A DNA stretch of 45,344 nt, counting the filler, from Jimgerdemannia flammicorona (lineage: Eukaryota): NCBI GenBank assembly GCA_003990765.1. It is 2 parts of 2 records of this genome, joined end to end, with 100 filler letters (N's around TTAATTAATTAA, not from the genome) between each part and the next. Parts side by side here need not be neighbours in the genome. Positions count along the whole stretch, not along the records: positions 22,725 to 45,344 come from RBNJ01001239.1; 1 more part is not named here. One strand, written 5' to 3'. A program made the translations under genes and the position numbers. Within the stretch, counting starts at the first letter, position 1; each line of letters begins with the position of its first letter. The notes under the pieces were generated by a model, which was given only the letters and a program-made list of their open reading frames with translations, ran no database searches and was not told the origin of the DNA. This document shows positions 15,640 through 45,344 of this stretch, one piece after another.

Positions 15640-16800
15640 TATAATAGTTCTAGTTTCTTTAAGAGGAAGTGACTAAATCTGGAAGTTCTAGTTGGCCTAA
15701 AGTAGCTTAAAGAGATACTTAAAGGATTTCTGAGAGAAAATATTCTGAACTTTATTCAGGTAGAAAACAAGAATATTTATACAAGATCTGAAAGAAAGAT
15801 CCAAAAGGATCTTGAAAAGAAAGAGAAATGCCAAGAAATAGGTTCTTGACAAAGCTGACTAATACTATTCTACAATGTTCCAAAAGGTTCCATAACTAGC
15901 TAAGACAAGATACTTGGTACTAAGAAAAGACAAGAATGTTCTAGTAGTGTCTGGGTACTGAGAGAAAGTTTCTAAGCAAGTAGAAGGTGCCGGAACATAG
16001 TAGAATGTTCAAGAAATAATAAGAAAAGACTGACTAAAAGACATGAAAAATATACTAAGACTAAATATAACTGTGAAATTGTTACATCTCTCTCTCCTTA
16101 AGAACTAATGTCCTCATTGAGTTCTTAGATAATATAAGGCTAGATATACTTAACCAAAATTTCTCAAACTTGAATTGGTGTATTGACAGGAATTGGCCAT
16201 TCTCATATAGAGCAGAGAATCTATTACTAGATTAACCAACTGAGAGGAGTTTAAACTCAGCTAGTAGCTTCATTTTGGTAGACTTCTTATTTATTAAATG
16301 TTCTGCTGGTTCCAGGGTCCTAAAGTAAACTTCCAATATATAAGGCACTAGTCATTGCCATAGATCATCAATAATCCAAGGAGATCACTATAGAGATTGG
16401 GCAATATATTTTGCCTCAAAGTCTTAAACTAGATCTTGAGAGTTCTTGAGGTTGACCAGTGATTCCCAGATAGCATTATATTCAGAATAACCCATCCACT
16501 TGACTAGGTATTCAGAGCAGTGGTAGTGGATTCATTTGTCAAGAATTTTCTCAGCTTCATACTCAATATGGTCTTCAATAATCACAGGGGTAGAAGGCTT
16601 AGGAATTCAACCAGGATAGAGTGGTGACTGGTTCCAGGTCTTGAGGTGTGACACATAAAAGACCAGGTGTACTCTCATGGTTTCAGGTAGCTTGAGGCAG
16701 TAGGAGGATGCAGAGACTTGTTCAGTGATCTCAAAAGGTCCAATATACTTGAGTTGGAACTTGTTTAAAGAGCAGTTGACTTGACCCTTTCTCAGCTAAC
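15640..16800 (-). mobile_element. Ty3/Gypsy chromovirus 3' fragment: integrase C-terminus, chromodomain(s), PPT, ~447 bp 3' LTR (15640-16086)
   Basis: Minus strand reads KYIGPFEITEQVS...LKLPETMRVHLVFYVSHLK, EYEAEKILD...EYLVKWMGY...WESLVNL. PPT aaggagagagaga is followed by TGTAACA at 16086; the other end TATAATA at 15640 looks like mutated TGTAACA. Confidence 0.8.
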
Positions 16801-19800: not shown

Positions 19801-22624
19801 GCTGGCAAGGAGGCTGGGAAATAGAGAAGGTGAAAGGTGAGATGGGCTTCTAGTAGACTGTCTAGGCTCTTAGGAGATTGGGTGAGACTGGTGACATTGG
19901 AGGGGGAGGAGAATTGGAGGTCCATATAGGTGAAAAAGGAGGTTGGTGAACTACAACAGGTGCTGCGAGAGGAGGAGAAAGCGAGGGTGAAGAGTTTGGC
20001 AGCTAGGCTATATTGGCAGGGTTTGGAAGAAGGGGAGAGGCCCTCTAAGTTTCTCATGAGAGCCCTTTGGGTAAGGAGGGTGCAACAAAGGTGGAAGGGG
20101 GTGCTTGACTCTGATGGTGTCCTGGTCTATGGTATTCAAGACATTCTTGGATTTTTAAAGGAGCACTAGAGTGGATTGTGGAGTGAGGAGGAGGGTGGGG
20201 TAGATGCCAATACAATTGGCCATGCATTAGAAGATTGGTAACCCCCACAAGTAGATGGAATGGGTGACTTGGTGTTGCCAGTCTAAGAGGAGGAGATCCA
20301 CCAGATTCTCACTATAACAATGTCAGGTATGGCACCTGGAAAAGATGGTTTGCTCTGGGATTTCTGGAAGAAGATGGTCGGGATCCCAGGAGTACTGGGT
20401 GAGATGATGGTATTATGTAATCTTATTCTACAGATAGGGAGATGGGTGGGGGAACAAGATCTGGGGTTGGTGACATTGTTCTACAAGAACAAAGGAAGGT
20501 GAGAGGACTGGAAGAACTGGAGGCTGATTATGCTCTTGGATATGGACAGAAAGTTGGTTACTAAGGTGGTGGTTGCGAGACTACAAATGGTGACACAGAA
20601 AATCTTGAGCATTGAGCAGAGGGGTTTTGTAGGGAGATGGCTCATTAGGGATGGCATGGCCTGGGTATATGGAGTTATTGAAGGGGCATGAGCTTGTGGA
20701 TTGGATGGGTACCTGGTCTTCTTGGACCAGGAGAAGGCTTACGACCAAGTGAGGTGAGTCTGGCTGGCAAAAGTTTTGGATAGGGCTGGGGTTCTGCACC
20801 AGTTCTAATTAGCAATAGTCAGTCTACTGGAAGGGAGTAGAGCAGTGCTTATGTGTAATGGTCATTGAGGGGTGGCTTTTCCCCTAGATAGGGGGGTGCC
20901 CCAGGAGGACCCATTGTCCCCCATTTTGTATGCCCTTTCCCTGGAACTGCTACTGGATAGAATCAGGCAGAAGATAGTGAGGCTCTCCATCTTAGTATCA
21001 GATAGAAGGTAGGGGCCTTTGCAGATGACATGGTGGTTGGACTGGGATCAATTGCTAATGTCAAGGAGCTTAAGGAGACAGTGGAGTGGTATGAGAAGAA
21101 CTCTGGGGCAAGACTTAATTGGCATAAGTGCAAAACAATAGTGTTAGGCAATGGTCTGGTGGGCAGGGAGGTTATTGGAACAATCATCTCTACTGGTAAG
21201 GCAGTGTGGTACTTGGGTATCTATATATTAGTGTATGGGTCAGTACTATCCAGGCTAGTGCTCCCAATGAATCAAGGGTCCAATTCAATTCAATTTGAAT
21301 TGAATCAAAGGTCCAATTTGATTTGAAGTTCGATTCGAACCTTAATTTTCAAAATGTAATAACTCGACGAAAACTCATCCAAATTTAACGTATTTTAGCT
21401 TGTTAGATTCACTGTATTAATGTAATTCTAACAAGCCAAAGTATGTTAGATTTGGATGAGTTACGCTGAGTTATTGCATTTTGAAAATTAGGGTTTGAAT
21501 CAGACCCTCAATTCGATTCGACTTTTGATTCAATTTGAATTGATTCAAATTGAAAAATCCCCAATTCGATTTGACTCATTTAACCCTCAATTCGATTCAA
21601 TTCGAATTGATTCAACTCATTTGGGAGCATTAATCCAGGCTTTGGTAGGAGCAGTGGATTAGCATCTGGGGGGAGGCCCTGTAGAGTTGGGGGGGCCATC
21701 AATTGTCCCTGGCAGGGCGTGTTACAATTTTGAACATCTACTGGCTGCTGAAGTTGTGGTATCTGGCATATTATCTGGATTTCCCATCCTGGGTAGTGAA
21801 GTGGCTGATGAAGCTTGCCATAGGATGGATCTAGACTAGAAGGAGGAGTCAGATAAGCTGGGAGGTCTTGTCCTTACCAGTGGTGAGGGGTGGACTGGGA
21901 CTGGTTGACTTTCCAAAGAGACTATACTGCTTGAGGGTTTGGTGGTTGAAGAGAGCTGTGGAATTGAGAGGGGGTGGTTGGGTTCCCCTATTACAGAAGG
22001 TTTGAGAGAGACAGTTCTTACCAAGAGACTCAACTAGTAATCTCCTATCTTTGGTTGGACTTCAGAACACTAATCAATTGTGATATAAAAGCTTCCAGTT
22101 GGGGATAGCAGAGGGGGCATACTGCATCAGAATCCATTGGCAGGGGAATGAAGGAGAGGAGGATTGGAACCTGGTAATGTGGAGATGGGACTGGGTACTA
22201 CTGGGTGGTATCCCATTACTTGAGTTTGACATTAGTAATGGGATAGACTGCCAGAGGGGACCAGACCAGGATCTGTGGCCCAGTGGTTGATAAGGTGTAG
22301 GAATTGGCGAGAAGTGGGACTGATGTAGCATTTGGACATAGAGTGCTAAGGTGAGAAGATGGATGCTGCTGAAGTACTGGATGACTTAGTGATGCATGCT
22401 GAGGAGGAATGTTATGCTCAATTACTGCTTAGGTCATCTTGTCAAGGGGGGTTGTTTTGACTGTAAGGAGTGCTATAATATAGGACAGAAAGGGGGTTAT
22501 GTACAGATGCCTGAACATTGGCTAGGGGAGTGTGATGTACTTAGTGACTTTTGGCAGACTGTTGGGGATCATTTGGGGGTAAGGGGCAGGGGAACTGGCA
22601 TATGGGGGTGGTGGAAGGATTTGA
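16801..22624 (+). mobile_element. L1/Tx1-like LINE copy 2, near full length, inactivated
   Basis: ORF1 from ~16865 (SFAEVVK motif). ORF2 from ~18910: SLNVN, DLFLLQ, LGGDFN, SDH; RT motifs APGKDGL, QRGFV, DQEKAYD, GVPQEDPLSP, FADD, YLGI, LSLAGRVTILN; C-terminal CxxC..H..C at ~22450-22540. Many stops. Confidence 0.9.
21256..21632. mobile_element. hAT-type foldback MITE, 377 bp
   Basis: TIRs TAGTGCTCCCAA / TTGGGAGCATTA; 8-bp TSD ATCCAGGC at 21248-21255 and 21633-21640; long internal inverted repeat. Confidence 0.88.
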
Positions 22625-22724
22625 NNNNNNNNNNNNNNNNNNNNNNNNNNNNNNNNNNNNNNNNNNNNTTAATTAATTAANNNNNNNNNNNNNNNNNNNN
22701 NNNNNNNNNNNNNNNNNNNNNNNN
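22625..22724. other. artificial assembly linker (44 N + TTAATTAATTAA + 44 N)
   Basis: Exactly 100 nt, symmetric, with a core giving stops in all six frames. Confidence 0.95.
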
Positions 22725-22830
22725 TTTTTAAAAAAATTTATTATCATTTTCTTATTCTTTTTTTTTTTGTGAGATTCTCTGCAATGACAGAACATCCATA
22801 CAGTATAGACTCAGTAATTATTTTTTATTA

Positions 22831-23138
22831 GAGCATTTTCTCGATCAATTGCTCAACAAGGCTGAGGAGCTAGGAAAGAAAGTGGTCATTGTTTCTGAGG
22901 TGTATATGTCAAAGACATATAGTGCATGTGGGTAGATCAATCAGGGGTTGAGCAGTCAAAAGGTCTTTTGGTGCTGGGATTGTAAATGGGTAGTAGATAG
23001 AGATGTAAATGGCACCCAAAGGATCTTTCTGAGAGGACTTCTGTTTCTCGAAGAGAGATCTCAATGAAGGCTTTGCTTGATGGAGCTGCCCAAGTTGCGA
23101 AACTGGTGAGTTTCACGTGCCTGACTAGTGTTGACTAG
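22831..23138 (+). pseudogene. Fanzor2/TnpB C-terminal remnant (zinc ribbon + RuvC-III)
   Basis: FLDQLLNKAEELGKKVVIVSEVYMSKTYSACG*INQGLSSQKVFWCWDCKWVVDRDVNGTQRIFLR, then ALLDGAAQ after a ~35-bp insertion. Matches the TnpB pattern E.YTSKTCS.CG...F.C..C....DRD.NGA. Confidence 0.85.
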
Positions 23139-23172
23139 CCATGGTTAGTGATGCTCGCTTAGACCCATCCGA
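23075..23172 (+). ncRNA. candidate Fanzor omega-RNA scaffold / element right end
   Basis: Hairpins GAAACT-ggtg-AGTTTC and ACTAGC-catg-GTTAGT, possible closing pairing GATGG(23079)/CCATC(23165); overlaps the ORF 3' end as for TnpB omega-RNAs. Confidence 0.4.
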
Positions 23173-23445
23173 CAGCAAACGAAGGAACGAAGGACAGCAT
23201 TTGAGCGTGACATCACCCACTGACTAACCAATCATCCTGAATAATTATGTTATCCTGCATTTCACACCATCGTTCGTTTATTTGAGTACTCCGTTTCCAA
23301 ATCGTGTCACATTTGTTACATTTATGAATTAGTTTCATACTATCGAGTATGAACGTCTTTGTCGTAGCAACCACAATGAGCTCAAGAGTTGATCATGTCT
23401 GCTTGTTTTTTTGTCTCCTTTTCCAACTCAACCTTTCCAGGTTCG

Positions 23446-25593
23446 TTATGATGTGATGGTATACCTGTATAAAAGTTTGAACGACATTTGGTTATGAAAG
23501 CGGCCTATAAAGCATAAGTAATCGCTAAACACGTTCATAAATCAAACAAACCATCTGGCACGACAGTCCACCGCATGCCGCCTGACTAGCCTCTTATTGT
23601 CGTCCAGCGCCTGTCCGAGTTCCAACAGCACCTGGGTCTTGTATGGATGTAATATGTCGTAGCGTAGAGCTGATGGATATTGAGCAAGGCACCGCAGCGC
23701 GGCTATTCTTACTTTCTGCGCAACCAAAAGCAGCAGACGGAAAGAGGGTTAAGGAGTTACGTCAAGTACAAAAACAATGCGGATCGCAGTCTCAAAGTAC
23801 CATGGTATTCGGCTCCGCCATCTTGGACAAGCCTAGCAAGGCAGGAATCAGGGTCTGTATGTGCGCGGCCACCACTTGTGGTGCATCGGTAGTTGCCATG
23901 TAAAATGTGTTCAATGTAGCGATCTTAAGGCTCGGGTACGGCAACGACAAGGATTGGATCAGTAACGGGAAGAGCTGGTGGAAGATGAAGTGGTTGGAAA
24001 TATCATTAGACGAGTGTATTTGTCTACACAGCGAGCATTACAGATTATGATTCCAAGCAAAATATTGAGTCTCGAATCGCAGCTTAGCTTCAAATTATGC
24101 ATTATGTATAAGCACTCACTGGCGGCAACTCGTTCAGCAACACCTGTTTCGGGATATTTCGCAGAACGTACGACAGAGCAATTAGATGATTATGCTTCAC
24201 ATCTGTGGCATCCGAAAAATAGGCAAACAGCAAGTTGTTAGATTTCGAGATGCAGCACAGATGCTATCATAATAAAATGAACCATAGTACGAACCGTCCA
24301 TCGACGACTTGAATCCAGAGACTAGGCCTGGCAGGCAGTGATTGAAAAAGCGTTGCTTATACAACAACTGAATGAGGGTGATTGATTGGTCACGTCAGAA
24401 TTGAATTGTGCTCACAATCATGATATAGTCAGTCTACATGATAAATGCGGTGATAACCAACCTTAATCACCGCGAACGAGGCCTTATTCAGCACCAGTTC
24501 GTCGTCTCCGATAATGACATTGAAACCTTCTGATGCTTTTTTGCCCACCTGCGGGTCGCCAAACAGTTTTATTACGCTATCTGTCATTTCGAAGCCGAGC
24601 GCGTGGGTGCGGAGCACCAGAGCCTTGGTGATCTGTGTCAAGTATTGAATGGTTCTGTTATTTGAACGAACGATGTCTGCATGGCGACGTTTCTTATATC
24701 CACAAAGATGCGACTAGTTGCCAATCCTTACCCACAAATGCACCAAAAGTGCCGCGCTTTGTTTCCGTTGTGCTAAATCGTCCACTACTGGGGATGTCAT
24801 GATGGCGCTCAACTTTGTAATGACATTGGTTTGGACAAAGGTGGTCAACCCAGCATCTGCGCAAAAAAAAAAAAAAAAAAGGATGAACTCCGACACGTTA
24901 TGTAACATGATACGAATATCAAAACCCACTAGTTACTAGTTACTGACCATCCTGCCATTTATTTACTACGGAACCAACGGTCCGCGTCACCGCCTCCCGT
25001 TGCACATCGTCGTTTGCCTCAAGTGCAAGCCCAATGAGCTCTGTGAGGAATTCCGGCAAACTCGCAACAGGCAATATAACCTTCAAAGAAGCGAACCGGT
25101 TCGAATAAAATCAGCCCAAATGTCTGGTCAAGTATGCATGATAATTCATGAACAATTTTTACCTCTTTTCGACTCGACCCTACGACAGCTGCAAACAGTA
25201 ATGTCAATCTTGCCTGAGACAAGGGCGCATCTACCTGATCGATCCAATATACGAATAAATACATTCAACGCTGATGGTCAGTGCCTTCCAAAGTATGTCG
25301 CCTGGAAAGTTAAACGGGGATGATGCTGGAAGCAGTGGCAATCAAGTTAACATGGTCAACCGACCTTGAGAGGAGCGAAGCTATTGGAAAATACCGCGTG
25401 CCCACCCAAGGACGATCCTGCCGTGTTGCCTTTCATGAATAAGTCGAAAAGCTGGTCAATGAAGGTTTTTTGCGAGCTGGAAAAGATGGAACCAGAACAT
25501 TGGTCATATATTTACGGTTCGTTAGAAATCAACTGCAGGGATCAGTGATACAAATTTGAACCAATAAATGAAATTAAAAATAAAAAATAAAAT

Positions 25594-25626
<33 letters not shown>

Positions 25627-28600
25627 TACATACGAAGCATCCAGGCTACGCAGCACAAAGGCCACAATGCTGGCAGTAATTTGCAGTGTGCTAACGTCCC
25701 CCCACATGCTGTCACTCCCTTCAGGATCTGCCATTGCTGACTCGACCAACTTGCTCACAAGCCGCGGAACGAGTGTGGTAATACATGAGCCGATATCCGT
25801 GTGTGCCTGCGCCGATTTGACGTTTAACACGGTCAAGACCGTGGACAGCATTGCTTGAGGGTATGTGACGTCGGTGTTGGTAGAGTCTGATGGAGAGAAA
25901 AGAGATGTATAGAGACGAAATTAAAATGCTGGCCTCACGAAATAAGATGGCGGAGAAGAGGAGAACTTTGAACGCTCACCCGTATTAGAAACGCGATCTA
26001 GCTTCTTCAGCAGCTCCGGCACAATCACAGCGAACAACGCAGGTTTGACGGCCAGCTCGCCTAGGGCGTGCAATGTTTTCTCGTACGTGCGGTGCGCCAC
26101 TGCCGGATCGTCCAGAGAATAGGGAAGCTGTGCGACGAGCGAGGGAACGGTGTGCTCGAGGAGTGGGGCGGGTCTATGGTGCGCGATCATGAATAGGGAT
26201 TTGAGAGCCTCCGTCCTGCAAAGATGTGGGATCGGGACAATATAAGAGACATGCGATATATCCAACAGGAGATGATGCCTTCAAATAACAAATGCATTAT
26301 ACTAGAACTAATGACTAATGTCCACCTCAATTCGGCATCGTCATCGTCCAGAAGAATCTGGTTAATTGACTGTACCACGATTCCCACCTATGTAAAGAAA
26401 GCATCCAGCATACCATCAGAGTCTCGCTCAAACCATAATCTTAATGCCTACTATATCAACTATCATTCGTTAGGTATGGTTTCACGAGCCAAATGCCTCA
26501 CCTCATTGATGGCCAGATACTGCCTCAACATCGCCATTAGATGCAACCCCTTCAACCCTCCCAGCCTGAGAGCACTATATTCATTCGACGACATTAGGGC
26601 AGTGCCAAAGATCTCGAAGAACCGATCCTTGTAAGCGAGCAACGGGGTGACAAAATCCTGATCGGCTGGTGGGACGATGAAGGGCGAAAAAGACGAGGAG
26701 GGCAGGGTTAACGAGCAAGACGGGACCGCGTCAGATGCCGCCGGACACACGGCGACGCGACAATCATAAGACGCGGATAAAGACATGCGCTCGCGTTTTC
26801 GCTTCCGCTTCCGCGTACCGTCGTTCGTGTCGTCGATCGAGCCGTACAGGGTTTTGCTGGCCTCAAGGAACTCGTGAAGGACATCGATGATGGCTTTCTT
26901 ACGCGTCGCCAGATTGCTCTCCCTGTATTGGCGGAGGAGAATCGGGACAGCGGCGGTGACGATGGCGTTGCATGCCGGATCTGTATCGTGGTCCAGTTGG
27001 TCGGTGGCAATATGTCAAACCCTCACCCAATGGTTTATGCGTATCATTTCCCAGCACACATTACTTCATTACTCAAAGAAACAGGGACTTCATACCCGAT
27101 GCCGACGCCGCAGCCTTCAATATCCTCCCAGCGGGCTTCGAATTCTTGGCTTCGGGTTCCTTGAGGTTGACCATGCACTCGACGATCAACGGTTTGAGAG
27201 CCTTTTCGGTCGGATCCGCAGCCGCGATGACGCTGATCCCGGCGCTCAGGGTCGCGACGATGCGGTGCATGGCGGCGAGGGCGGCGTCCTCGAGCGCCGG
27301 GTCCGTAGCATGGAAGATCTCGATCTTGAGGGCGTCGAATAGATCAGCGAGGTACGGGATCAGCGCCGTCGCGCCGTATATCGGGGCGCACGCCGCAATC
27401 GTTTCCATTGAATCTTTCTGTGATGAGATCGAAATAAAAAGTTCAACAGAATGGACGATAGTCCTTGTAGATGAGGGTATTATAGAGGAATTCGCAAACC
27501 TTGGCACTTCCAGAACTAGACGACAGCTTCTCCAGCAAAAGAGGCATCGCGAATTTTGCGAAATGGGGAGTCGCTGCAAGGCATTCCCTGGATGGCATAA
27601 TCAAGGTGAGATAGACATTCTATCGTCCACATATACATTTATAGCATGTTTATAAGACTTGATGCTAACCGCAAGCTGAACTTTAGATCCTCGGCCGTGA
27701 TGCCGTATGGATCATCTGGCGGAGGCTTGAAAGTAATTGGGAAGTAGCAAAACGTAACTTCAAATAGATCCTGCATCATGACAAGACAGCGCAGAGAATG
27801 TAAGCAACAAGTGTATACATAAATCGAGGAGCAGTGCGACAACAGTATACATCACACGAACCTCGACATGACTGGCAATGTCGAACTCGTGGATGATGTT
27901 CTTGATCAATCCAAATGCCAGTAGCAGGTTCCGAGGATCCTTCTCGCCGTCCATAATTTGCGTGAAGCCAAAGACGAAGTCGTCGCCGAGCTTCTGAAGG
28001 GCTGATAAATATTTATACACCGATGAAGAGGTTAACATTGCGCGTGAATTGAACATGAATAAATGGATTCGACGCGAAATGTGCTAGACACAATATGGTT
28101 TGGCTAACCTTGCAGGTGTTGCTTGAGCAGTGAGTCGATGGTCTGGAACACCGTGTGCCGGACCGCTTGTTGGAAGCTCTGTACATTCACGTTAAACAAG
28201 CTGTGATATGGAAAGTTAGGTGAATTAGAGATTCCAAGAATCTGATGATTGTCATCTTGCGCTGCGGGGAAACTCACGCCTTCGCCGTCTTTGTGGCATT
28301 CTCGTTACTGAAGGCGTCGAATTTGGACAGGGCGAGCAAGCCTTCGAGGAGTTTAGGAGCGCTTATCTTGTCCGCCAGTCTCTCGCGGAAGAAGTCCGTC
28401 AGAACGTTGACTTCAAGAGATAATCAATACCCCAGTGATTCCATTTAAACTCGGCCCGAGATCACAATGATGAGCCAATGCATAGAGACAACACCAATGA
28501 TGTCAGGAAATAGACTGACCTGCCGTCGCGTTGATCTGGTTTTGCTGACAGTTAGCCAGAACGAATGAAAGAATTCCCGTCGCTATATTGGTTCAATTTT

Positions 28601-30724: not shown

Positions 30725-32503
30725 TTAGGCAAACGGCGCTGTTCCCTGCGCAGCTGCCTCGGCCTTTTTAGCCTCGGCTGCTTTGCGCGATTTCTCCACC
30801 AGCTCATCAGTGTACACCCCCGAAACGTTGGGGTTCGCTACAGTTATTTCTGGCGCCACAGGAAGCGTCTTGGCCACTATGGTGCAGATAGAAATTTGAG
30901 TTTAAGATGCAGTTATTAAAAAGAAAAAGAGTTTTGTCAAGACGTAGATCACTGTTGGAAGGACTTACTATGCGATGGAACACAACCACCGGCAATGTGA
31001 CTGCAAGTACAGGTACCGCCCAAGAAATCGGGAAGGTTCTCCGCCGGGATTTGTTCAAGGAGGACTTTAGGGTAGTCCTTTCCGAGAATGTGAATCTTTT
31101 CGATGACCTGATCATAAAAAAAAAAAAAAAAAAAAGCCAACACATAACAAATATCTTCAATATTGATATTTTCCCAATACCAATGCATCACACAAGAGGA
31201 TAGAATTGTTCTGACCCACAACGAAACCCAATGGGGATCGGAATAACTTACACCGGGATCAAGCCACCCCTTGACAATTTTCCACACCATGACGAATGCG
31301 CTCGGAGCATTGACGAGGTAAAGCTTGTTCATCGTCTCGGGATAATACTTTTGGTCAATGTCAGCAATAGCGCGGATAAATTGCAGGGCGGGCATATGGA
31401 ATTCTGAATGCAGCGAACATGGAATAATAATATAGTATGAGTACACATCCGGAAGAACATATTCTACATATTCTGAAAAAGTGCTTCCCACTGCTATTGT
31501 TGCACAAGGCCTTCATCAAGGAGAATGAACAACAGAAAGTCGCCGCCACATGACCCTTTGTTCCGAAAACGAAGTTTTTTTCTTCAAACAATACCTCACT
31601 CAACATAGGAAACATCAGCTTGACCAGTAATCAGATCGTCAAAAAACACAAACCGTAACAGACTGTAACAACAACACTTACGATTCCAGCCCATATTCGT
31701 GCAATCGAAGATTACAGTCTCCTTGTGGATAATGTGTCCCACGCGCTCCGTGCATTCACCCATGATCTTCCGGTGCAAGAACTCATTGCACGCAATGTGA
31801 TAATTGACCACTTCCTCTATGGTCGTGAACGTGGCGAGCTTCTTGGCATCGTGGTAACCCTGTTGTGAGATGAGATCCGAAAAGGATATTATGTGTGGGG
31901 ATCATTGGAGGATTCTCTATACGAGGATGCGATTCCTATATATACTGCAGCGTCTCTTCGCCACCTTTTGTTTCTCCTTCTATCATATGCAGCATAAATC
32001 CCAATTCATGCTACCACATCTCTCATCGTCACTGCAAATGTAGTGCATATCCCACCTACACTAGAATCAACCTACTCACCAATCGCTCAATATACAACGG
32101 GCACCCCTCCCTATCAACTTTGTGAAGGCATGAACCCCCCATATACTTGGCGATGCGGAGCACGTACTCGGAGATGCCAGGCACGGTCTCGAGGTTGCTG
32201 TCTGGCATCGAGGTGAAGCCGCGCACGGGGTAGATGCACGGCAGAATGCCGTCGCCGGCGATCGGGACCTCGTCGATCTTGTTGGCCATACGCCATTCCA
32301 TCGCGGCATTGAACTGTTCCTTGGCGGCGTTCTGGGGGCGAAGGGGATTGTGAGTTCTGGCTCGTGGCTTTCAGGGAGGTCCGATAGTACGTCGCTGCGC
32401 TTGATGGGTCAAGCGACCGTCAGGGTTTTCAACATGGTCATAGTTCAGATCTAGCGTGACCACAAAGGGTGCGAAGGAACCCAAAAGTGGGAATATCGGC
32501 CAA

Positions 32504-32783: not shown

Positions 32784-33213
32784 GGTTGAAGGGCAGAAGG
32801 TTGAGGTAGTGAAGGAGAAAAAGGTGTAAAGGTATTTGTGAGTCGGAGGCTGGGAGGTTCCCTGTTCGGGGTTCTTAAAATATTAAGGTTTGATGTCCTG
32901 ATTTGGGCCGGAGGCCCCGAGACCCTGAGCCCAACAACTCTCCTGAGTTCTAATTTCTTCCTTTTCCCAATTGCTTGTAGCACGGTTATAAGAGGACAAT
33001 AGGTCGTTGATAGGAATTTACCATACATGGCCATACAACTCTGCGCGGGCGTGTCTTTTTGTGGATAGGCTGAAGAAAGTTTTCTGCACCAATGGCAAGG
33101 TGCCATTCGACTAGCGGTGACGGTGACACAGCTGTAGATGATGTCACCGACTGTATGAAAACACGTCCCTCAAAACTTTTGGCAGCGCCATCCCAACCCT
33201 CCTCCCAACCATA

Positions 33214-35919
33214 ATGTCCATGAACTTGAGTCCTTTCGTTCATTATCATTGTCCCTGTCCCGACATTTACTTCGAGTCTGACGCCGCTGTCGACGCCGCC
33301 TCAACCACTGCTCCCCAGGCCTGCCTCCGAGACGCGACCCAGACCCTTGACATCAACTCCCCGCGCACGGACTTCTCGTTGCATCCGCTATCGCGCCTCT
33401 ACTTTTGCGAGGACTGCCACCAGATCCGTTGTCCTTCGTGCGTGCAGGACGAGATTGTTTCGTACTACTGTCCGAACTGCTTGTTTGAGGTGAGGCGCAC
33501 CGGCTAGAACCCAACAGAACGCGCCTGTGGCTGGCCGACGGCTGTGGTGCATTTTCTGATCTGCCGGCTTTGTCTTCGTCCCTCAGGTACCCCAAGCGAC
33601 CGTGAAGAGCGAGAAGAGTCGGTAGGCTGAGAATATTTATACCTATTCATCCATGATCATCGTATCTACTATTGATCTAAACCTATTTGCCCCCTCTGCG
33701 TGTCCAGCTGCGCCCGCAATTGTTTCCAATGTCCTATCTGTCAAAATACGCTCTCGGTTGTGTCAAGCTCTGAGTCTGCTGTAGGAACACAGAGCACGAC
33801 GGCGACTGCTGTGGGACCATATTTCCTCTCGTGCAGCGTGTGTCGGTGGGATTCGCAGGAGATCGGGATAACGTTTGAGAGACCAAACAGTTTGGCTCGT
33901 AAGTAATGGCCGCTTGTGGAGAGAGGCGCAATATGTAATCGTTGGTTGATCTGCTTTATCCAAACCCTGGTGCGGGCTTCGTAGCCGTGGATTGGGCTCA
34001 GTATTGTCCTCAAAATGCATTGTTTGCATATCATCACCGCCCTATAGTTCAGCTCCAAAAGAACGAAGAGGCCCTCCCCGATGTCAAGGAATTCGAGCAC
34101 CTCAAGGAGCATTTCGACAAGTTCCTGCGCGGGCCCTCCCCGCCCGCACACTCCAACCTGCTCTCCGTGTCGAGCGTCAGTGCATTTAGTAGGATGGGGG
34201 TCAACCCGGCGACGCAGCAACAACAGCGGGCGGATGAAATCGGGAAGTACGAGCCCGAAGTGAAGGTCCCGAATGATGATGTCGCAAAGACGCAGAGCTT
34301 AATATCAGTGAAGCATGTGAATGAGGGTAGGTAGAATGAGCGGGATTGGGTTTGGCTTATCGTTTTTTGTTTATTCGGGGTGTATGGCGAGAGAGAAGGG
34401 CAATTGTGCGGGTATGTGGTAATTCCTGGCATGATCTATGCCATTGCATCAAGTCACAACCCTCAGTCAACGAGTCAACCAATTACACGATCAGCCGTAT
34501 CACACCAGGTACGTTGCATTGTCTCCATGCCTCATATAATGAACCTTGTCTTCATTTGCCAGCTCAACGCATATTTTTCCAGCCGAATGTTGACATGCAT
34601 CACCAATCATCATTCTCATCGCTGTGTAGTAAAATCCACCCCCAGCGCATCAATTTGCGCATTAAGCGCTCAAAACGTTGCCGAACCTGTCGTCACATCC
34701 TAATCAAGCCCGAGCAGAAGGCCCAAGCGACGCGGTTCAAAATAAAGCTTGTGGCCATGTAAGCACCACTGCTTCCTTTTCTTTGTAATTATATAAGCCA
34801 AATGGAACCCACCTAACCAACCATACATATCGGCGGTTTTTTTTTTTTTTTTTTGGAAGGATCTATATCCCGACCATCTCGATCGTGAAGCTACCCAAGA
34901 AGAACTGGCCGTTGCAGTTGGGCATCCCGACACAGTTCGTGCTCAAGTTCACGAATCCACTGTACGAGGAGATCAGCGTCACCTTGGCGACGCCACATCA
35001 GGAAACCGAGGAGCAGCGACGGCGCGGAAGCCGCACCAGCTCCAGCACGGATGGGGTGAGCAGCGCGAAGCAGAGTCTCGAACACAAGGAAGAACCCAAG
35101 ACGTGTGGGAAGGTGAGTTGTGGGAATCTTTAATAATAGGAAAGTTTTTACATAGGAAGGCGCGTGATCTGTTGAAAATTGGGAGATGTCATATTTCCAA
35201 TCACTCAGCCGCCATTCCTATGGACCAAACAGGTCACCCTTCTCTCCCCGCACTTCACTGTCGGGCCCTATGACGAGGTCTGGGGCTACGATGAGGAGCT
35301 CTCGTCGCTTTCGGGCGCCACCACTCCAGGCTCGGCGTCGATACGTTCGGGCACCTCTGGGTTTTCGTTCAAGCGCGAGAAACACAACTCGTTGGCCGCG
35401 GGGTGGGAGGCCGGCGTGTACGAGAAGCGCAACAACTTCACCAGCATACTGGTCGAGGTCGTACCGGAGAAGGAGGGCGAGTTCAAGGTGCGTGAGTGGG
35501 TTTACGTTGGTCTGTTCTGGATCGATTGACGCGACGTGGGAATGGGAAATTTGCAAATCTTCCATATCTCTGGAACTGCGTCGTGTTCGGCTCGGCGAGT
35601 TACGTATTTTCGACACTCATCTCATTTTTCCCTTTCACCAATTATTATCCAGTTCCCCATCCTGGTGACATACACTTATCGGCCAGACGACGATAATAAG
35701 ATGGACACGGCGGGGGACGCGGTGGACGCGGTGGACGACGACGCCTCATCTACGCACTCGTCGGTTTACACGGACGAAGACGGTAACGTGTCCCATTCGC
35801 ACAAGGCGGGCGCAGCTCGCCACTCGGACGACGAAAAAAGCGAAGAGGGTCTGAAGAGCTATTCATTTTGGACCGTCGTCGGCCTAGGGGAGGTCGTGGC
35901 GAGAGATGCGACGGTATGA
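33214..35919 (+). CDS. DCTN4: dynactin subunit 4 (p62), ~9 exons
   Basis: LYFCEDCHQIRCPSCVQDEIVSYYCPNCLFEV, CARNCFQCPIC, LRIKRSKRCRTCRHILIKPE, LKFTNPLYE. Confidence 0.95.
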
Positions 35920-38750: not shown

Positions 38751-39589
38751 GCTTTCAGCATTTTCAATCCACTCTCTATTTCTTTATTCAAAGACACAGG
38801 TATCTTGGCCATCCTCTCGCTACGGCGAGGTAGCCTTCGTGGTCCCTTAAATGAAACGGCCTGCCATTTTGTCGGCATGCTGAGTTTAAGCCACTCCCAG
38901 CTCCGCATTTTTATAAAAGCCTTTGGAAATCTTTCAAGAATAAGCCTTTTTACTATTCATGTGAGTTTTATTGCACGCAAGCTGATCTTGGGAAATGAAA
39001 AGGTAAATTGTGGGCCGATAGCTGACAATGCTTTATTGCATGAATGACAAAGGTGGCAAGGACGGCAACCATCCAGATCCTACGCGTTTCCACGCAGCCG
39101 TCTTTACCATTGAACTCCGCCTAACTATCAGCTTCCAATAGCCGGCATCAGAAAGAAATGAAGGGATTGCAAGTGAAATTCAACGAGGTCCGCAGCTATG
39201 TCGAAAAAAGGGAGGGGCCGTCACCAAGGCTTAAGGGGCAAATTCGAGAGAGTTGGGAGAAAAAAGGAGAGAGGAAGGACTCTGACCTTGCACGGGCACA
39301 TTGAGGTTGAAAATAGAGCAAATCGATGAGATGCGAGAAATGTTATAGCCTATCCTCAAGTCGGCGAACAGCTTATGTAGTTTAGAGTACTTTGAGATTG
39401 TGTAATGGTACTAGGATGGGTGGAGCCGACAACTGACTTGGATATACGAGGTTGGTGCCTGGCCGAGTGCCGAGAATTGTACATCAATAATCAGAGTGAT
39501 TCCTAAACAGACTCTGCGAAGTTCCAGGTTACAATTTAAGATCAAGCATTCTCGTAGAATCAGATTGTTAGCCGCTTTCCATGTAATTT

Positions 39590-40740
39590 GTAGTGTAATT
39601 TTTGTGTAATTTTAAATATATTTCACTTTATAGTAGAAAGGACTATCCCTATATAAAATGAACATATGAAACTAATTTACATCAAATCTATGATAGAGTC
39701 CAAAAATTACAGCACCATCAGAAGTATTTTGAAACAAGAACAAGGTAAGAAAATCACTCTATATATTTTCAAAATATCTGATACCAAAGCTATTTAAGAA
39801 TATTTGGATAAAGAGAGGATTACCTATGAAATTTACCAACAATTAGTTAATTTCAATAATTTTAATAGAAGTATAAACACTATTTATCTAGAAGATATTT
39901 CTGGATAAAGTCAATAAGAAATTAAATTCTAGAAAGTAAGAATTATCAGAAATATCTGAAGAATCAAGAAAAAAATGAAAATATAAAGAGTAAAGATATA
40001 GGAATAGTTCTATATATTCTTTAATATACTGTAAAAGAAATTTAACAAACTCAGACAAACTGTATATAATATATATATATATATATAATGAATGATAAAA
40101 ATTTAATTAAATATAAGAAGGTACTCTATTTTTTAAAACTTGTTTACAGTTGTAATTGCTCTACCAAAGTTTCTAAAGAAGAGTTTGCCAAATTGTGAAA
40201 AGCTTTTTAAGCTCTCTCTAAGTCAGAACAAGATATATTTTTAATGGCTCAACTCAAAACTATGGATGGAAAAGTGACCAATATTAGTCAATATCTTAAG
40301 AATAGAGCTCATATTAATAAAAGAACTTTATACTATTGAGACTGCAATATATCTCTTTACTAGAAAACCTACTTAAATATACTAGAAATTAGTTGAGTCT
40401 ATTTTGAAAACATCAGTAAATAATAGTCTTTTATTTTTATTTTTATTTTTTATTTTTTATTTTATAGACTCAGAGTTCTACAGATTTTTATTGAAAGAGA
40501 ATCTAGACTATATAGGCCAAAACTCTTCTCTACCATCTAGAGCACTGTTTATCTATTAAGTCTAGACTAGCTATTATTCAGCAGCTTGACCATATTAGAT
40601 ACAGTAGAGTCTATAGCAATCTGTATCTTATTCTGCATACTGTATTCTCTCTACTACCAGAGAGAACTCAGTCATATACCAATAACTGAAAGTATATACC
40701 TGAAACCCCAATATATGTACAAGGCCATATCTGAGCTAAA
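39590..40740 (+). mobile_element. AT-rich degenerate DNA-transposon-like fragment (possibly Sola-type)
   Basis: CpG-free; remnant peptide ALSKSEQDIFLMAQL...KTYLNILEIS resembles transposase N-termini. Family assignment weak. Confidence 0.35.
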
Positions 40741-40741
40741 T

Positions 40742-40817
40742 TGTAAGTACACAACCTCCAAGCCACTGAAATTACATGTCACTCTCTGAATAAGCCACCA
40801 AAATCACATGCAACCTC
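40742..40817 (+). mobile_element. LTR copy A (first 76 bp, interrupted by copy B)
   Basis: TGTAAGTACACAACCTCCAAGCCAC... matches the start at 43568; homology ends where B's terminus begins. Confidence 0.85.
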
Positions 40818-42878
40818 TGTATAAGGGGGTTGCTTTTTAGGGTAACCATTACGTAGTTCTGGAAAGGTTTTCTGGAGGTTCTGAATATTCTGGAAGACTG
40901 TTTTCTTATGGTCAAGATCAATTTCATATGGAGTATGTCCTCTACGCTTATTGATTTCAAGATCAGGTTGACATCTCAACCAAAGTCCTTTTTCGGACTA
41001 GTTCTGGATATTCAGGATTTTCCGTATTTCAGAAAGTTCAAGAAACTAAGACCAGCTTAGTTAAATCAGCATATTGCTGCAGACAATACCCAATTAGGAA
41101 ATTTTGTGATGGGGTTAGGAGTGGGACCTAATGGGTAGCAGATTTACTTAAGGGTAGTTTGTGGGTTATTGAATAGGTTTATTTGCTATTCATGATATTG
41201 CTATACTAGGAGTAGTTATGTGAAGAGATATTGTAGGGAAGTATTCAGGAATGTTCTTGTGTGTCCAAGTCTCAGATTCTGAGGTCTGGGGGAGGGGGTA
41301 TTTATACATGAGGGGCTATCTGGACTATGCTGAATATGGATGTAGCACTAAGTGCCTTGCTGAGTCAGAATGTAGTCATGTAGTATAAGTGTGATCTGAC
41401 ATGTCAAGAGATCGTCTGACTGCTGAGTCAGTTCACAGTCATGTCGTATAAGGCTAATCTAACTATACTATGACTGCTAGGCTATTTATGGGTTTAGATA
41501 CTGTCTAGATAGTCTTTGATAATATCACTATCAATTGCATCATCTCTGATAAAGTAGTCATTTAGGAAGAGTGGTTCGCGGATTACTTCTTCTTGTTTGC
41601 TGAGGTAATAATACATTGGAACTTTGTCACCATCCCACAGAATAGTATCATCTGTCTCATATACTGGATAAGGTGTTGGTGGGCGAAAGAGGGGTACATC
41701 ATCTTCACTTATATCAGATTCGCTGTCTGTATATCTTCTGTAGGTTACAGCACTATAAGTCACAGGATTGTAGTAAGCTGGTGACTGTGGTTCATGTTAC
41801 TCATACTCGGGTGGTGGGGTGGTTGGTTCAATCTCGAGGGTTGTCTGGAGGTACAGGTTGTGTTCTCCAGTCTCTTCATTATAGTTGAAGTAATTGGGGA
41901 TGAATACAGGTTAGTATTCATACCAGTGGTCATTGTCCCAATAAGTCTTGTATGCTGTTATGAATTGTATAAGTTCATCGGCAAGGTTGGTGGTATGATC
42001 AGGGTTGGCAGAGATCCTTGGCTAGAGGTCATGTTAGTATCAGAGGGATTATTGTCTTCTGCTTCATCTTCATCAAAGTAGATTATATTGTAGATATCCT
42101 TCATGGCATATCCAACTTAGGGCATTTGCAGGATATGGTCATTGGGGTGTAGGAAGGTTCTGTCTGTGGTTTTGACATACTCGAGGTACTTGTGGTTGAG
42201 TTCTTGTATCATGTTGTCGATTTGGCCATAGGACAGGGTAGCAACCATTTCGGCTGTGGTAACTTGGAGGTGGGGAATAATGGTGCTATACTCATAGAAG
42301 AGTTCTTGATGTTTGCAGGCGATAAGCTTCTGGTGTTGAGACATCTGAGTGATGTCTGTATCATGGTGGTGTTTGATCATGTCTTCTAGGAGGTGGCCAA
42401 TCTGGTAGTAGCTTGAGATTTGTCCAATTCAGTGGGCCTCACTAAGTATGTTCAGAGCATTCTATCAGACTTCTACGAAGTAGAGGGGTGCTAGGCTATG
42501 GATATTCATGAGGGGCAGAGAGAGTGTGGCTCGGTTGATAATGGCATTCCAAATGTCAGCATAGATATGGGTATAGATCTTGGTAGTCATATTTGTATAT
42601 TTAGAAGTTATAGTTGTTGTTTGTTTTGGTTCTCTAATTCGATGTGTCTTGGTGCTCAGTATATATGCATTTGGTCCTGATTGGTAAGATTCCATTTGTG
42701 TGAATCTTGTGTTCTGTGACTTTGTATTGACTCAGCTTTGTATGCTGTGACTTTGGTTTGACTCAGCTTTGTGATCAAGCAGGTGATTTCCAGATTTGTT
42801 CAGAGGTCGCATGTGATTTCAGTGGCTTGTTCAGAGAGTAATATATAGTTTTGGTGGCTTAGAGGTTGTACACTTACA
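40818..42878 (-). mobile_element. LTR copy B, complete 2061-bp 3' LTR with decayed internal ORF
   Basis: Minus strand TGTAAG...TTATACA; PPT AAGAAGGGGAGAG adjacent at 42880-42892; inverted homolog of 43568-45344. Confidence 0.88.
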
Positions 42879-43567
42879 ACTCTCCCCTTCTTAGCTTTCG
42901 ACATCCTCATCAGGACCTTCTAATTTTGTTCAGTAGTACAGGGAGAATAGGCTTGCTTTCAGTTTTGCCATTTTTTCAGAGGGTCAGTATTTCTGTCTTG
43001 TTTTGCTGAGTTCTTGGTTTGGTTTGCAATAAATATAATGTTCAGACAGATAATATATAGTATGTATAGATAGGTGTGGAGTATTTGGTTCTAGTTGTTC
43101 AAGAAATCATATTTCTGAACTAGATTGGTAGTATTCTGGAGATTGGTCTTGGGTTCCCATATTGTATCATAGATCGGGTAACCTTTCCATTTGACAAGAT
43201 ACTCAGGGTGACTCTTGTTGCCATGTTTGTTGAGGATTTGTTCAACTTCATACTCTTCTTAATCATTAATAATGATAGGTGCAGGTGGTTTGGTAGTCCA
43301 GTTTGGAAATAGCTTATCATCATTCTCATTGTATTGCTTGAGATGTTGAATATTAAAGACTGGATGAATCTTATGGTATCCAGTAGCACCAATTTGTAGG
43401 AGGTTAGAGAGACTTGTGCAATGACTTCAAATGGTCCAATGAACTTGCTGTTCAGCTTTGTAGATAGTCTGTGCTTTGAGGTTGTCAACTTGGTATCCTC
43501 TGATGTCCAGTAGAACTTTTTCTCCAATATCAAAGGTTTCTTCTTGGCAGTGTTGGTTAATATACTA
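42879..43567 (-). mobile_element. Ty3/Gypsy chromovirus internal 3' region (integrase C-terminus, chromodomain, PPT)
   Basis: KLNSKFIGPFEVIAQVSLTSYKL, then EEYEVEQILNKHGNKSHPEYLVKWKGYPIYDTIWEPKTNL. Confidence 0.88.
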
Positions 43568-45344
43568 TGTAAGCGCACAACCTCCAAGCCACCGAAATTA
43601 CATGTCACCCTCTGAACAAGCCACTGAAATCACACACGACCTCCAAACAAATCTGGAAATCACCTGCTTGATCACTAAGCTGAGTCAAACTGAAGTCACA
43701 GCGCACAAAGCTGAGTCAATATGAAGTCATGGAACACAAGATCTACACAAACGGAACATTACCAATCAGGACCAAATGCATATATACTGAGCACCGAGAC
43801 GCATCAAGTCAGAGAACCAAAACAAACAACAACCACAACTTCCAAACACACAAACATGACCACTGAGATCTATAACTGCATCCGCGCTGACATTTGGAAT
43901 GCCATTGTCAACTGAGCCATACCCCCTCTGCCCCTCATGAATATCCATAGCCTGGCACCTCTCTACTTCATGGAAGCCCGATGGAATGCCCTGAACATAC
44001 TTAGCGAGGCCCACCGAATCGGACAAATCTCAAGCTACTACCAGATTGGCCACCTCCTGGAAGACATGGTCGAACACCACCATGATACAGACATTACCCA
44101 GATGTCTCAACACCAGAAGCTCATCGCCCGCAAACATCGAGAACTCTTCTATGAGTACAACACCTTTATTCCCCATCTCCGAGTCACTACCAGTGAAATG
44201 ATTGCTACCCTGTCCTACGGCCAAATCGATGATATGATACAAGAAATCAACCACAAATACCTCGAGTATATCGAAACCACAGACAGAACCTTCCCGCACC
44301 CCAATGACCATATCCTACAAATGCCTCAAGTCGGATACGCCATGAAGGACGTCTACGATATAATCCACTTCGATGAAGATGAAGCAGAAGACAATGATCT
44401 CTCTGATGCTGACATGACCTCTAGCCAAGGATCTCTGCCAACCCTGATCACTCCGCCAACCTTGCCGATGAACTTACAACAGTTCATAACCACATACGAG
44501 ACTTATTGGGACAATGACCACTGGCACGAATACCAACCCGCGTTCACCCCCGATTACTTTAACTACAATGAAGAGACTGGAGAACACAACCTGTACCTCC
44601 AGACAACTCTCGAGATTGAACCAACCACTCCACCACCCGAGTACGAGCGACTTGAATCACAGCCACCAGCTTACTACAACCCCGCGACTTATAGTGCTGT
44701 AACCTATAGAAGGTACGTAGATAGCGAATCTGATGAAAGCGAAGACAATACACCCATCCTTTGCCCACCAACACCTTATCCAGCATACGAGACAGATGAT
44801 GCTATCCTGTGGGATGGCGACGAAGTTCCAATGTATTACTACCTCAGCCAACAAGGAGAAGTAATCTGCAAACCACTATTCCTAGATGACTACTTCATCA
44901 GAGATGATGCAATCGATGGTGATGTCATTGAGGACTACCCAGACAGCGCCTAAAACTATAAATAGCCTAGCAGTTATAGTATAGTTAGATTAGCCTTGTA
45001 TGATGTAACTGTGAACTGACTCAGCAGTCAGACGATCTCTTGACATGTCAGATCACACTTGTACTACGTGACTGCATTCCGACTCAGCAAGGCACTTAGT
45101 GCTACATCCATATCTAGCATAGTCCAGATAGCCCCTCACTAGTATAAATACCCCCTCCCCCAGACCTCAGAATCTCAGACTCGAACATATAAGAACATTC
45201 CTGAATACTTCCCCACAAATATCCCTTCACACAAATACTCCTAGTATAGCAATATCATGAATAGCAAATAAACCTATTCCATAACCCACAAACCACTCTT
45301 AAGTAAATCCGCTCTCTGTTAGGTCCTACTCCTAACCCCGTCAC
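43568..45344 (+). mobile_element. LTR copy C (least mutated; runs off window end, ~290 bp missing)
   Basis: Starts TGTAAGCGC; colinear with the reverse complement of 41106-42878; TATA-like GTATAAATA ~45142 and AATAAA ~45267. Confidence 0.88.
43856..44953 (+). CDS. LTR-embedded ORF of unknown function (one TGA at 43913; open 338 aa from 43937)
   Basis: Copy B has CGA (Arg) at the 43913 stop position, restoring 365 aa from 43856 or 410 aa from 43721. Helical N-half, acidic C-half with PPEY and PPAY. Confidence 0.7.

Follow-up and report, generated by a model that had tools for sequence, protein, structure and literature searches.

In the 45,344-nt stretch of Jimgerdemannia flammicorona DNA analysed here (the window; NCBI GenBank assembly GCA_003990765.1, positions 22,725 to 45,344 being from RBNJ01001239.1), three copies of one repeat begin with the same TGTAAG, at 40742 and 43568 on the plus strand and at 42878 on the minus strand. 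This common start had been proposed in an earlier reading of the sequence (the original prediction), and it was borne out by inspection of the sequence and by a blastn search in which copy C was the query and the whole window the target. Three places matched: C itself (43568–45344, plus strand), copy B (40818–42878, minus strand) and a fragment, A (40742–40817, plus strand). B was 87.8% identical to C over 1777 nt (42878 to 41106), and the two were collinear across all 1777 nt, with four single-base gaps. Fragment A is the 76-nt start of an older copy, truncated where the 3′ end of B abuts it; over these 76 nt it was 86.8% identical to C and 83% identical to B. The upstream flanks of A, B and C were mutually unrelated, and the 5′ terminus was identical. 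Repeats sought elsewhere, in the 9800–24500 region, were unrelated to these copies.

Copy B lies directly behind the 3′ end of a pol gene (42893–43567, minus strand). An integrase C-terminal SH3-like domain (SH3_Tf2-1, PF24626; 43339–43470, E = 6.7e-09) is followed by a chromodomain (Chromo, PF00385; 43094–43258, E = 8.4e-15), just after which comes the pol stop codon (43091–43093). An untranslated 3′ spacer of about 200 nt then leads to a polypurine tract (PPT) of 13 purines, AAGAAGGGGAGAG (42880–42892, minus strand), one nucleotide (T) from the start of B. B has the terminal dinucleotides TG...CA, its sense strand ending in TTATACA at 40818, and measures 2061 nt in total, in agreement with the original prediction as to the CA end and the length. 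Because a 13-nt PPT immediately precedes B, with a Pfam chromodomain and the C-terminus of an integrase before it, the sequence supports identification of the 2061-nt repeat as the long terminal repeat (LTR) belonging to a chromodomain-bearing Ty3/Gypsy retrotransposon, a chromovirus, with B as its 3′ LTR. B is complete and heavily decayed, and the integrase region of its element is damaged by a frameshift near 43372 and by stop codons. Copy C, which lies within the integrase of B in the opposite orientation, interrupts the pol segment at 43567. The interval 43568–45344, which had itself been put forward as an LTR, is the same LTR, of which the window includes only positions 1–1777 of 2061. 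Of the internal region, the window contains only the final 675 nt, and gag, protease, RT and RNase H fall outside it. No full-length element, second LTR, target-site duplication (TSD) or primer-binding site (PBS) was found in the window, which stops within C.

The boundaries of these units were compared with contig junctions from four sets (X1, X2, X3 and X20), taken among the 24 loose ends listed (162 more exist). Two observations set the 3′ end of LTR B: it abuts fragment A, and one X2 contig, among the loose ends listed, departs from the LTR at 40820. Three nucleotides (ACT) later, this single contig carries the PBS-like TGGTAGCAGCAG where a PBS is expected; the first seven letters of TGGTAGCAGCAG are presumably complementary to the 3′ end of initiator tRNA-Met. 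No tRNA gene was found within the window. We also considered A and B as one 2137-nt unit with a 76-nt terminal inverted repeat, and rejected it because the X2 contig departs at 40820, not at 40742. One X20 contig, again among the loose ends listed, matches the flank to the left of A and diverges exactly at 40742. At least eight X1 contigs and at least one X3 contig extend the integrase of B past 43566 with other sequence; therefore, C is an insertion. The arrangement represents a nest of three levels, in which an old LTR, A, was split by the minus-strand element B, and the integrase of B was later struck by the plus-strand LTR or element C. Such self-nesting would be the expected product of chromodomain-guided integration into silenced repeats.

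The longest stop-free stretch of the LTR is an open reading frame (ORF) in sense orientation, which starts 288 nt inside the unit, downstream of the PPT. In C, it spans 43856–44953 on the plus strand (LTR positions 289–1386) and comprises 365 codons and a stop, from the ATG at 43856 to the TAA at 44951–44953. The original prediction had given 365 to 410 codons: the shorter form, from the ATG at 43856, stood, but the longer one needs an ATG at 43721 that is absent from aligned B. As for its openness, codon 20 is an in-frame TGA in C (43913–43915), leaving 338 codons open from the ATG at 43937, and the decayed ORF of B (41494–42590, minus strand) has seven stops and a 1-nt deletion that shifts the frame. 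All eight stops are transition products, and the inactivating decay in both copies consists of transitions concentrated at CpG/CpA. When C or G was set as ancestral at each B/C transition, the inferred ancestor of B and C had 366 codons and no internal stop. As reconstructed in this way, the ORF is intact in the last common ancestor of B and C; both LTR copies within the window are dead. The base composition of the ORF (A 32, C 30, G 18 and T 21%) resembles the rest of the element, unlike that of a host gene in the window (G 31.5%).

An exhaustive search of 1.84 billion representative proteins with the ORF returned three matches, one of which, P0003 (E = 2e-04), is a repetitive protein matched over 38 residues that we regarded as a chance match and set aside. 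The two others were the only relatives. Further homologue searches gave one near match, one shorter and none longer, and no longer or fused homologue was present among 1440 candidates. P0002 (128 aa) is 90% identical; its first Met corresponds to that at 43856, and it has an Arg at the position of the TGA in C. P0001 (247 aa) is 67% identical and is open to the identical C-terminal end, with two in-frame 2-residue gaps as its only gaps. A transversion is needed for 38 of its 83 replacements, and 19 of the 213 B/C substitutions are transversions. The P0001 replacements had a mean BLOSUM62 score of +0.27; the corresponding means were −0.20 over every possible single transition and −0.42 over every single-base change. 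Because P0002 shares the Met and P0001, at 67% identity, remains open to the same end with conservative replacements, the ORF is probably a real LTR-resident accessory gene, a case for constraint that is built on two database proteins, called only because they are open (ascertainment). The intact ancestor of B and C and the open frames in diverged relatives suggest, moreover, that the gene is kept up by an active lineage of the chromovirus.

The two copies in the window were also compared for selection. Context-matched permutation detected no purifying selection on the C lineage (17 nonsynonymous changes versus 20.3 expected, P = 0.13) or on the B lineage (53 versus 57.6 expected, P = 0.12). 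Position-2 changes numbered 4 in C versus 7.2 expected (P = 0.11) and 18 in B versus 17.7 expected. The B/C differences by codon position were 52/26/63; this bias was rejected as a sign of constraint because the context-matched permutation accounts for it. Absence of a selection signal in B and C fits dead copies and gives no positive support to the gene. Searches for related DNA found none among 74 matches to an alignment-based pattern in metagenome contigs, 28 pattern matches in genome contigs and 10 in viral contigs; a 22-nt exact LTR pattern had no match in metagenome contigs.

The predicted protein is acidic (pI 4.2 for the open 338-residue part) and rich in Tyr and Pro. Its N-terminal portion of about 145 residues is predicted, with low confidence only, to be helical, and its C-terminal half is of low complexity and contains two PPxY motifs in copy C; P0001 has PLxxY and PLxY at these sites. 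The original prediction had noted no Gag or Pol motif in the ORF, and at E ≤ 1 we likewise found no Pfam match to Gag, capsid, zf-CCHC (CCHC zinc knuckle) or Pol, the one Pfam family at this level being a sub-threshold DUF5338. A PDB sequence search with the ORF gave nothing significant (best E = 0.21), the best score in the ESM Atlas (0.84) was below lead level, and AlphaFold2 returned no confident fold (pLDDT 35.1 from the single sequence and 32.4 from a 3-row alignment). Neither the Pfam nor the PDB sequence search detected homology to Sag or Nef, and the fold models were too poor for comparison with them. By these searches, the protein is in no known family. It might act as a trans-acting accessory factor of the element; speculatively, its PPxY motifs might recruit a host WW-domain ubiquitin ligase, which would give it the role of an adaptor.

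Two promoter-like modules accompany the ORF. All eight occurrences of the motif GCTGAGTC-N7-AGTCA in the window (0.05 expected) fall in LTRs B and C, four in each: a sense pair upstream of the ORF and an antisense pair upstream of a TATA-like sequence, TATAAATA. In C, the sense pair (43679–43729, plus strand) forms a 31-nt direct repeat 127–177 nt upstream of the ORF ATG, and the antisense pair (45006–45088, minus strand) is 55–137 nt upstream of TATAAATA. Between the sense pair and the ATG are an ATATATA (43780–43786), about 70 nt before the ATG, and a CA-rich leader with no upstream ATG and with an A at −3. On the other side, the end of the ORF is followed 190 nt downstream by TATAAATA (45143–45150, plus strand) and 315 nt downstream by AATAAA (45268–45273, plus strand), the order that had been predicted; these two sequences are a candidate genomic promoter and a candidate poly(A) signal, and would define U3, R and U5.

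The placement of the ORF in U3, its promoters, its expression and its function are inferences, drawn for the expression from sequence alone. Most probably, the 5′ 290 nt of the LTR, with the TGAGTCA-containing motif pair, the ATATATA, the CA-rich leader and the A at −3, would be the promoter of the gene; its transcript would stop at the AATAAA of the LTR, and the mirror-image motif pair before TATAAATA would drive the genomic RNA. Any LTR, even a solo LTR, could on this model act as a transcription unit for the protein, with two copies of the gene made at each insertion. On balance, we favour the explanation that the chromovirus has a 2061-nt LTR with a 365-codon accessory gene maintained by an active lineage, every LTR of the family carrying it at positions 289–1386. 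We hold more tentatively to the fuller version, which is possible though doubtful, that the LTR-borne gene has its own promoter, that every LTR is an autonomous unit, and that the gene is an independent counterpart of sag and nef, possibly working through a PPxY-bound ligase or against silencing.

Could the ORF be a mere passenger? A captured or de novo sequence carried in the U3 of one successful subfamily, useless to the element and open through a recent burst, would account for there being just two real homologues among 1.84 billion representatives, for the lack of a known domain or confident fold and for the failure of permutation to reveal selection along either window lineage. It would also suit the contigs that have a different 5′ LTR part and break at 44899: one X3 and one X20 contig, among the loose ends listed, match the LTR only from that position on and have 101–125 unlike letters before it, so some related LTRs may have a different 5′ part without the ORF. 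In the fungal chromovirus crapaud, according to the available part of the source, the 5′ half of the LTR varies between subfamilies and defines them, and only gag and pol are named as ORFs (PMC10787394). We nevertheless consider a passenger origin unlikely. P0001 is 33% diverged, with nearly half of its replacements (38 of 83) requiring transversions, yet its 247 codons are open to the same stop and its changes are conservative, whereas the decay rate of B and C (eight stops and one frameshift per 366 codons at 12.9% divergence) predicts several stops in P0001. Moreover, the composition of the ORF is that of the element and not that of a host gene.

The layout of the LTR also permits readings in which the ORF is placed otherwise. 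The upstream module, with its motif pair and the ATATATA near 43780, could be the genomic promoter, which would put the ORF outside U3 as the first cistron in a very long R or leader and make TATAAATA secondary or unused. The module before the ORF does carry the same motif pair as that before TATAAATA, and the leader lacks an upstream ATG and shows an A at −3. Such an R would, however, span about 1.5 kb (from about 43810 to about 45290), the AATAAA of the 5′ LTR would need to go unused and gag-pol would turn into a downstream cistron, whereas TATAAATA with AATAAA 125 nt further on is the usual layout of U3, R and U5; we regard this arrangement as improbable. Still less probable is a composite, in which a short canonical LTR received, before the B/C ancestor, a separate mobile element consisting of the ORF block between the inverted 31-nt motif pairs (43679–43740 and 45006–45088). 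Inverted repeats of 30–31 nt with 73–74% complementarity do flank the ORF, and some contigs share just the part from 44899 on, but this breakpoint does not match the inverted repeats, no TSD is present at their edges, Pfam gave neither a transposase-like nor any other domain, the alignment of B and C is collinear over all 1777 nt with its four single-base gaps, and none of the loose ends listed (24; 162 more exist) hits the edges of the block. That the ORF arose by chance in T- and G-poor sequence is very unlikely, the least probable of these readings. The richness of the sense strand in A and C (T 21%, G 16–18%) does lower the frequency of stop codons; even so, of 2000 LTRs simulated with matched composition (first-order Markov), none reached 338 open codons (mean longest 104.5, maximum 302), and two independent homologues retain the frame, the start and the end.

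If the ORF is an accessory gene in the LTR of a chromovirus, how does it compare with known systems? To our knowledge, the LTRs of named fungal chromoviruses (MAGGY, Skippy, crapaud and Tcn1-like elements) are a few hundred nucleotides long and have no ORFs. The present element resembles these in the order of integrase SH3-like domain, chromodomain, PPT and TG...CA LTR, in the nesting of copies in its own copies and in C-to-T type decay; it differs from them in its 2061-nt LTR with a 365-codon sense ORF. Among retroviruses, MMTV encodes a superantigen in an ORF, sag, that lies within the U3 of its LTR, and in HIV/SIV, nef overlaps the 3′ U3. By positional analogy, the present ORF is like both, being a sense ORF in an LTR before a TATA/poly(A) pair and duplicated in each replication cycle, but it has no sequence similarity to them, belongs to an env-less retrotransposon of a fungal host and has a separate promoter-like module just before it within the LTR. 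A further class consists of the additional ORFs (aORFs) of LTR retrotransposons, such as gene23 of plant Grande, those of RIRE2, Retand and Ogre, and brtn of fungal Boty; according to the available part of a review, these are lineage-specific, have no database similarity, occur in many copies per family and are proposed to be regulatory or accessory (PMC7264820). The ORF described here is likewise extra, lineage-specific and without database similarity. It differs in lying inside the LTR itself, in sense orientation and downstream of the PPT, whereas aORFs occupy the internal region, for the most part the stretch from pol to the 3′ LTR, and are often antisense; the phrases "in", "within" or "inside the LTR" are absent from the available text of the review (PMC7264820). 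A full-text literature search for ORFs in or within retrotransposon LTRs found only retroviral cases of the MMTV type.

Fungal chromodomain Gypsy LTRs are normally short and non-coding, and a 2-kb LTR that bears a gene is unusual among them. Retrotransposon LTRs in general are regarded as promoter and terminator modules that do not code for protein. A conserved gene within the LTR, if real, would change the logic of dosage, with two copies per element, and would outlive deletion of the element, persisting in solo LTRs, the annotation of which would change accordingly. It would also offer a tractable fungal system for the role of an LTR-borne accessory protein. With LTRs of about 2 kb, such elements may also be overlooked or wrongly split by annotation pipelines and by LTR finders run with default limits on length.

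Some minor observations concern contig depth. In X20, which is RNA by guess only, the summed depth was about 3000 at LTR positions of about 1630–1890 versus about 3–19 on the ORF, values that rank nothing, and the integrase piece was uncovered. In X1, summed depth went from 2153 to 55 across 40823/40824, which is compatible with an LTR boundary and is not a copy number. Across X1–X3, summed contig depth was higher on the LTR than on the integrase piece.

When copy C of the LTR (43568–45344), which reaches LTR position 1777 where the window ends, was compared with the window by blastn, only three places were matched: C itself, copy B (42878→41106, minus strand, 87.8% over 1777 nt) and fragment A (40742–40817, plus strand, 76 nt, 86.8%). 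The common TGTAAG start of the three copies, noted in the original prediction, was thereby confirmed. The sequences upstream of this start were mutually unrelated (AT-rich DNA before A, a polypurine tract before B and the middle of an integrase gene before C), and one terminus shared by three different flanks indicates the end of an integrating unit. B directly follows the polypurine tract AAGAAGGGGAGAG (42880–42892, minus strand) plus one T. The pol stop (43091–43093, minus strand) lies approximately 200 nt further upstream, preceded by a chromodomain (43094–43258, minus strand; Pfam Chromo, E = 8.4e-15) and, upstream of that in another frame, by an integrase C-terminal SH3-like domain (PF24626, E = 6.7e-09). 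B ends at 40818, reading ...CCCCCTTATACA in the sense direction, and is 2061 nt long with TG...CA termini. The tract, pol stop and two domains identify B as the 3′ LTR of a chromovirus, and its predicted position, length and CA end were all recovered. That the pol remnant of B is broken is clear from two in-frame stops and from the shift of frame between its domains.

Logan contigs with at least 85% likeness were compared over a 4845-nt stretch in four sequencing runs: X1 and X3 (soil metagenomes from two studies), X2 (organism A) and X20 (organism B). The numbers of matching contigs (4786, 504, 64 and 450 in X1, X3, X2 and X20, respectively) indicate that outside the window the family is present in many copies. 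The integrase of B is crossed by eight X1 contigs and by one from X3 (211 loose letters), all of which depart from the window sequence past 43566, indicating that copy C was inserted into element B. A single X2 contig tracks the LTR as far as 40820, after which it continues, in the sense direction, with ACT TGGTAGCAGCAG... at the position expected for a primer-binding site; the first seven letters of TGGTAGCAGCAG would be complementary to the 3′ terminus of initiator tRNA-Met. A single X20 contig matches the flank left of A and departs exactly at 40742. Taken together, these junctions favour a three-level nest, in which A is an older LTR stump split by element B, and B was later struck by C. 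The same evidence counts against a single 2137-nt unit whose ends would be 76-nt inverted repeats. The integrase remnant in the window is one base short just after 43372 relative to one X2 contig and has one extra base at 43475 relative to four X1, one X2 and one X3 contigs; both differences are consistent with the frame change between the SH3-like domain and the chromodomain.

Within copy C, the sense frame of the LTR runs from the ATG at 43856 to the TAA at 44951–44953 (365 codons), with an in-frame TGA at codon 20 and an open run of 338 codons from the ATG at 43937. Of the predicted length of 365–410 codons, this frame is the shorter version; the 410-codon version starts at an ATG (43721) that sits within a repeated motif and is missing at the aligned place in B. 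In first-order Markov simulations of the LTR (n = 2000), the mean length of the longest stop-free run was 104.5 codons and the highest value 302, so that none reached 338.

B and C differ by 213 substitutions (194 transitions and 19 transversions) and 4 single-base gaps. In the ORF of B, CpG was hardest hit (27/55 C's and 20/55 G's mutated), followed by CpA/TpG (16/104 and 12/63). The decay is of the deamination type and more CpG-biased than classical RIP; its spectrum looks more like methyl-CpG deamination than CpA-directed RIP. When C or G was taken as ancestral at every transition difference between B and C, the inferred ORF comprised 366 codons with zero internal stops. All stops (one in C and seven in B, which also carries a 1-nt deletion) are transition products. 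The stop-free inferred frame indicates that the ancestor of B and C had an intact gene; both copies are now dead. When the observed mutations were re-dealt among sites with the same dinucleotide context, no deficit of nonsynonymous or stop-creating mutations was detected in the B or C lineage (P = 0.12–0.59), as expected under post-insertion decay. The same permutation explained a seeming scarcity of second-position differences (26/141).

In an exhaustive HMMER scan covering 1.84 billion representative proteins, two real relatives of the ORF protein, P0001 and P0002, and one chance-level match were recovered; word-indexed searches covering near, shorter and longer proteins yielded nothing further and no fused form. 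P0002 (128 aa, 90% identical) starts with MTTEIYN... at the Met of 43856 and reads Arg at the TGA position of copy C. P0001 (247 aa, 67% identity) spans the C-terminal two thirds and has the same end point, two in-frame 2-residue gaps being the sole length differences. Of its 83 replacements, 38 are impossible by transitions alone, compared with 19 transversions among the 213 substitutions of the B/C decay, and the replacements are comparatively conservative, their mean BLOSUM62 score being +0.27, against −0.20 for all single-transition changes possible in this ORF and −0.42 for all single-base changes. At the B/C rate of decay, which over 366 codons and 12.9% divergence produced 8 stops plus one frameshift, a neutral copy as diverged as P0001 should hold several stops. 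These protein-level comparisons provide moderate evidence that the active lineage keeps the protein, with the caveat that database proteins are open frames by construction. The base composition of the ORF resembles the rest of the element and not a host gene in the window, which argues against recent host-gene capture. The evidence comes from two copies that are both dead and from two proteins in databases. It partly supports the original interpretation, in that the gene resides in the LTR and is probably maintained; its U3 placement, expression and function are put forward as proposals.

As originally noted, the protein resembled no Gag: no Pfam family, including Gag, capsid, CCHC, Sag and Nef, was matched at E ≤ 1 (one DUF match was sub-threshold). 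A PDB sequence search found no relative (best E = 0.21) and the ESM Atlas gave no lead (top score 0.84). AlphaFold2 pLDDT was low, at 35.1 for the single sequence and 32.4 with a 3-row alignment. Over its open 338 residues the protein is acidic, with a pI of 4.2 and 63 Asp+Glu, and contains 29 Tyr and 26 Pro; the first ~145 residues are predicted, at low confidence, to be helical, and the remainder is rich in Pro, Tyr and acidic residues and contains PPEY and PPAY. Because the P0001 equivalents are PLSEY and PLAY, a PPxY-based adaptor role would be only a lead.

Downstream of the ORF on the plus strand, a TATA-like TATAAATA (45143) and AATAAA (45268) form the usual U3/R/U5 layout; if the former drives the genomic RNA, the ORF would lie in U3, in line with the original prediction. 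Eight occurrences of the composite motif GCTGAGTC-N7-AGTCA were counted in the window (0.05 expected), always within LTRs B and C. Each LTR has two sense copies 127–177 nt before the ORF ATG and two antisense copies 55–137 nt before TATAAATA, and the pairs constitute 30–31-nt inverted repeats flanking the ORF on both sides. The interval separating the upstream pair from the ATG contains an ATATATA (43780) and a CA-rich, ATG-free leader with A at −3. We prefer to read each LTR as having two putative promoters, one serving the gene and the other the genomic RNA, and a poly(A) signal at which both transcripts would stop; under this model, any such LTR would amount to a self-contained gene. As less probable alternatives, the upstream motif module could be the genomic promoter, with the ORF within a long leader, or the ORF block bracketed by the repeats could be a nested foreign element. 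One X3 and one X20 contig match the LTR only from 44899, 18 codons before the ORF stop, with 101 and 125 unlike letters upstream, which makes it probable that there are subfamilies of related LTRs whose 5′ part differs. Such variants would echo crapaud of Podospora, whose LTR 5′ halves are described as subfamily-specific in PMC10787394.

By position, the nearest analogues of the LTR ORF are MMTV sag and HIV nef, but these have no homology to it and differ in host and element type. Additional ORFs of LTR retrotransposons, the antisense gene of fungal Boty among them, are placed by the review PMC7264820 in the interior of the element, for the most part between pol and the 3′ LTR. Among the matches listed in a full-text literature search, whose scope excluded subscription journals and Repbase, no fungal or retrotransposon in-LTR ORF was found, which is not proof of absence. 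The element falls among LTR retrotransposons that bear a putative accessory ORF, and its architecture is unusual and testable.

The window is fungal nuclear DNA, with the LTR locus within its final 4.6 kb. Ordinary fungal host genes (PXA/PX/Nexin_C sorting nexin, Methyltransf_34, MMS19 on the minus strand and intron-split, CRAL/TRIO and dynactin p62) were found at 4206–10280, 25525–28083, 30952–31512 and 33142–34759, and their matches to stop-to-stop ORFs were split as by introns. A direct duplication of ~3.2 kb (12421–15627 and 17216–20448; 65–69% identity, spacing ~4.8 kb), unrelated to the LTR, is enclosed in a 12–23 kb stretch of strong positive GC skew (+0.3 to +0.55), where stop-to-stop ORFs of at least 75 aa gave no Pfam match at 1e-3. 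Left of fragment A, 39550–40741 is AT-rich (30–37% GC) and has no long ORF. X20 contigs match part of it (40562–40741), indicating that this stretch too is repetitive; it probably represents an older repeat, now decayed, that served as the insertion target of LTR A.
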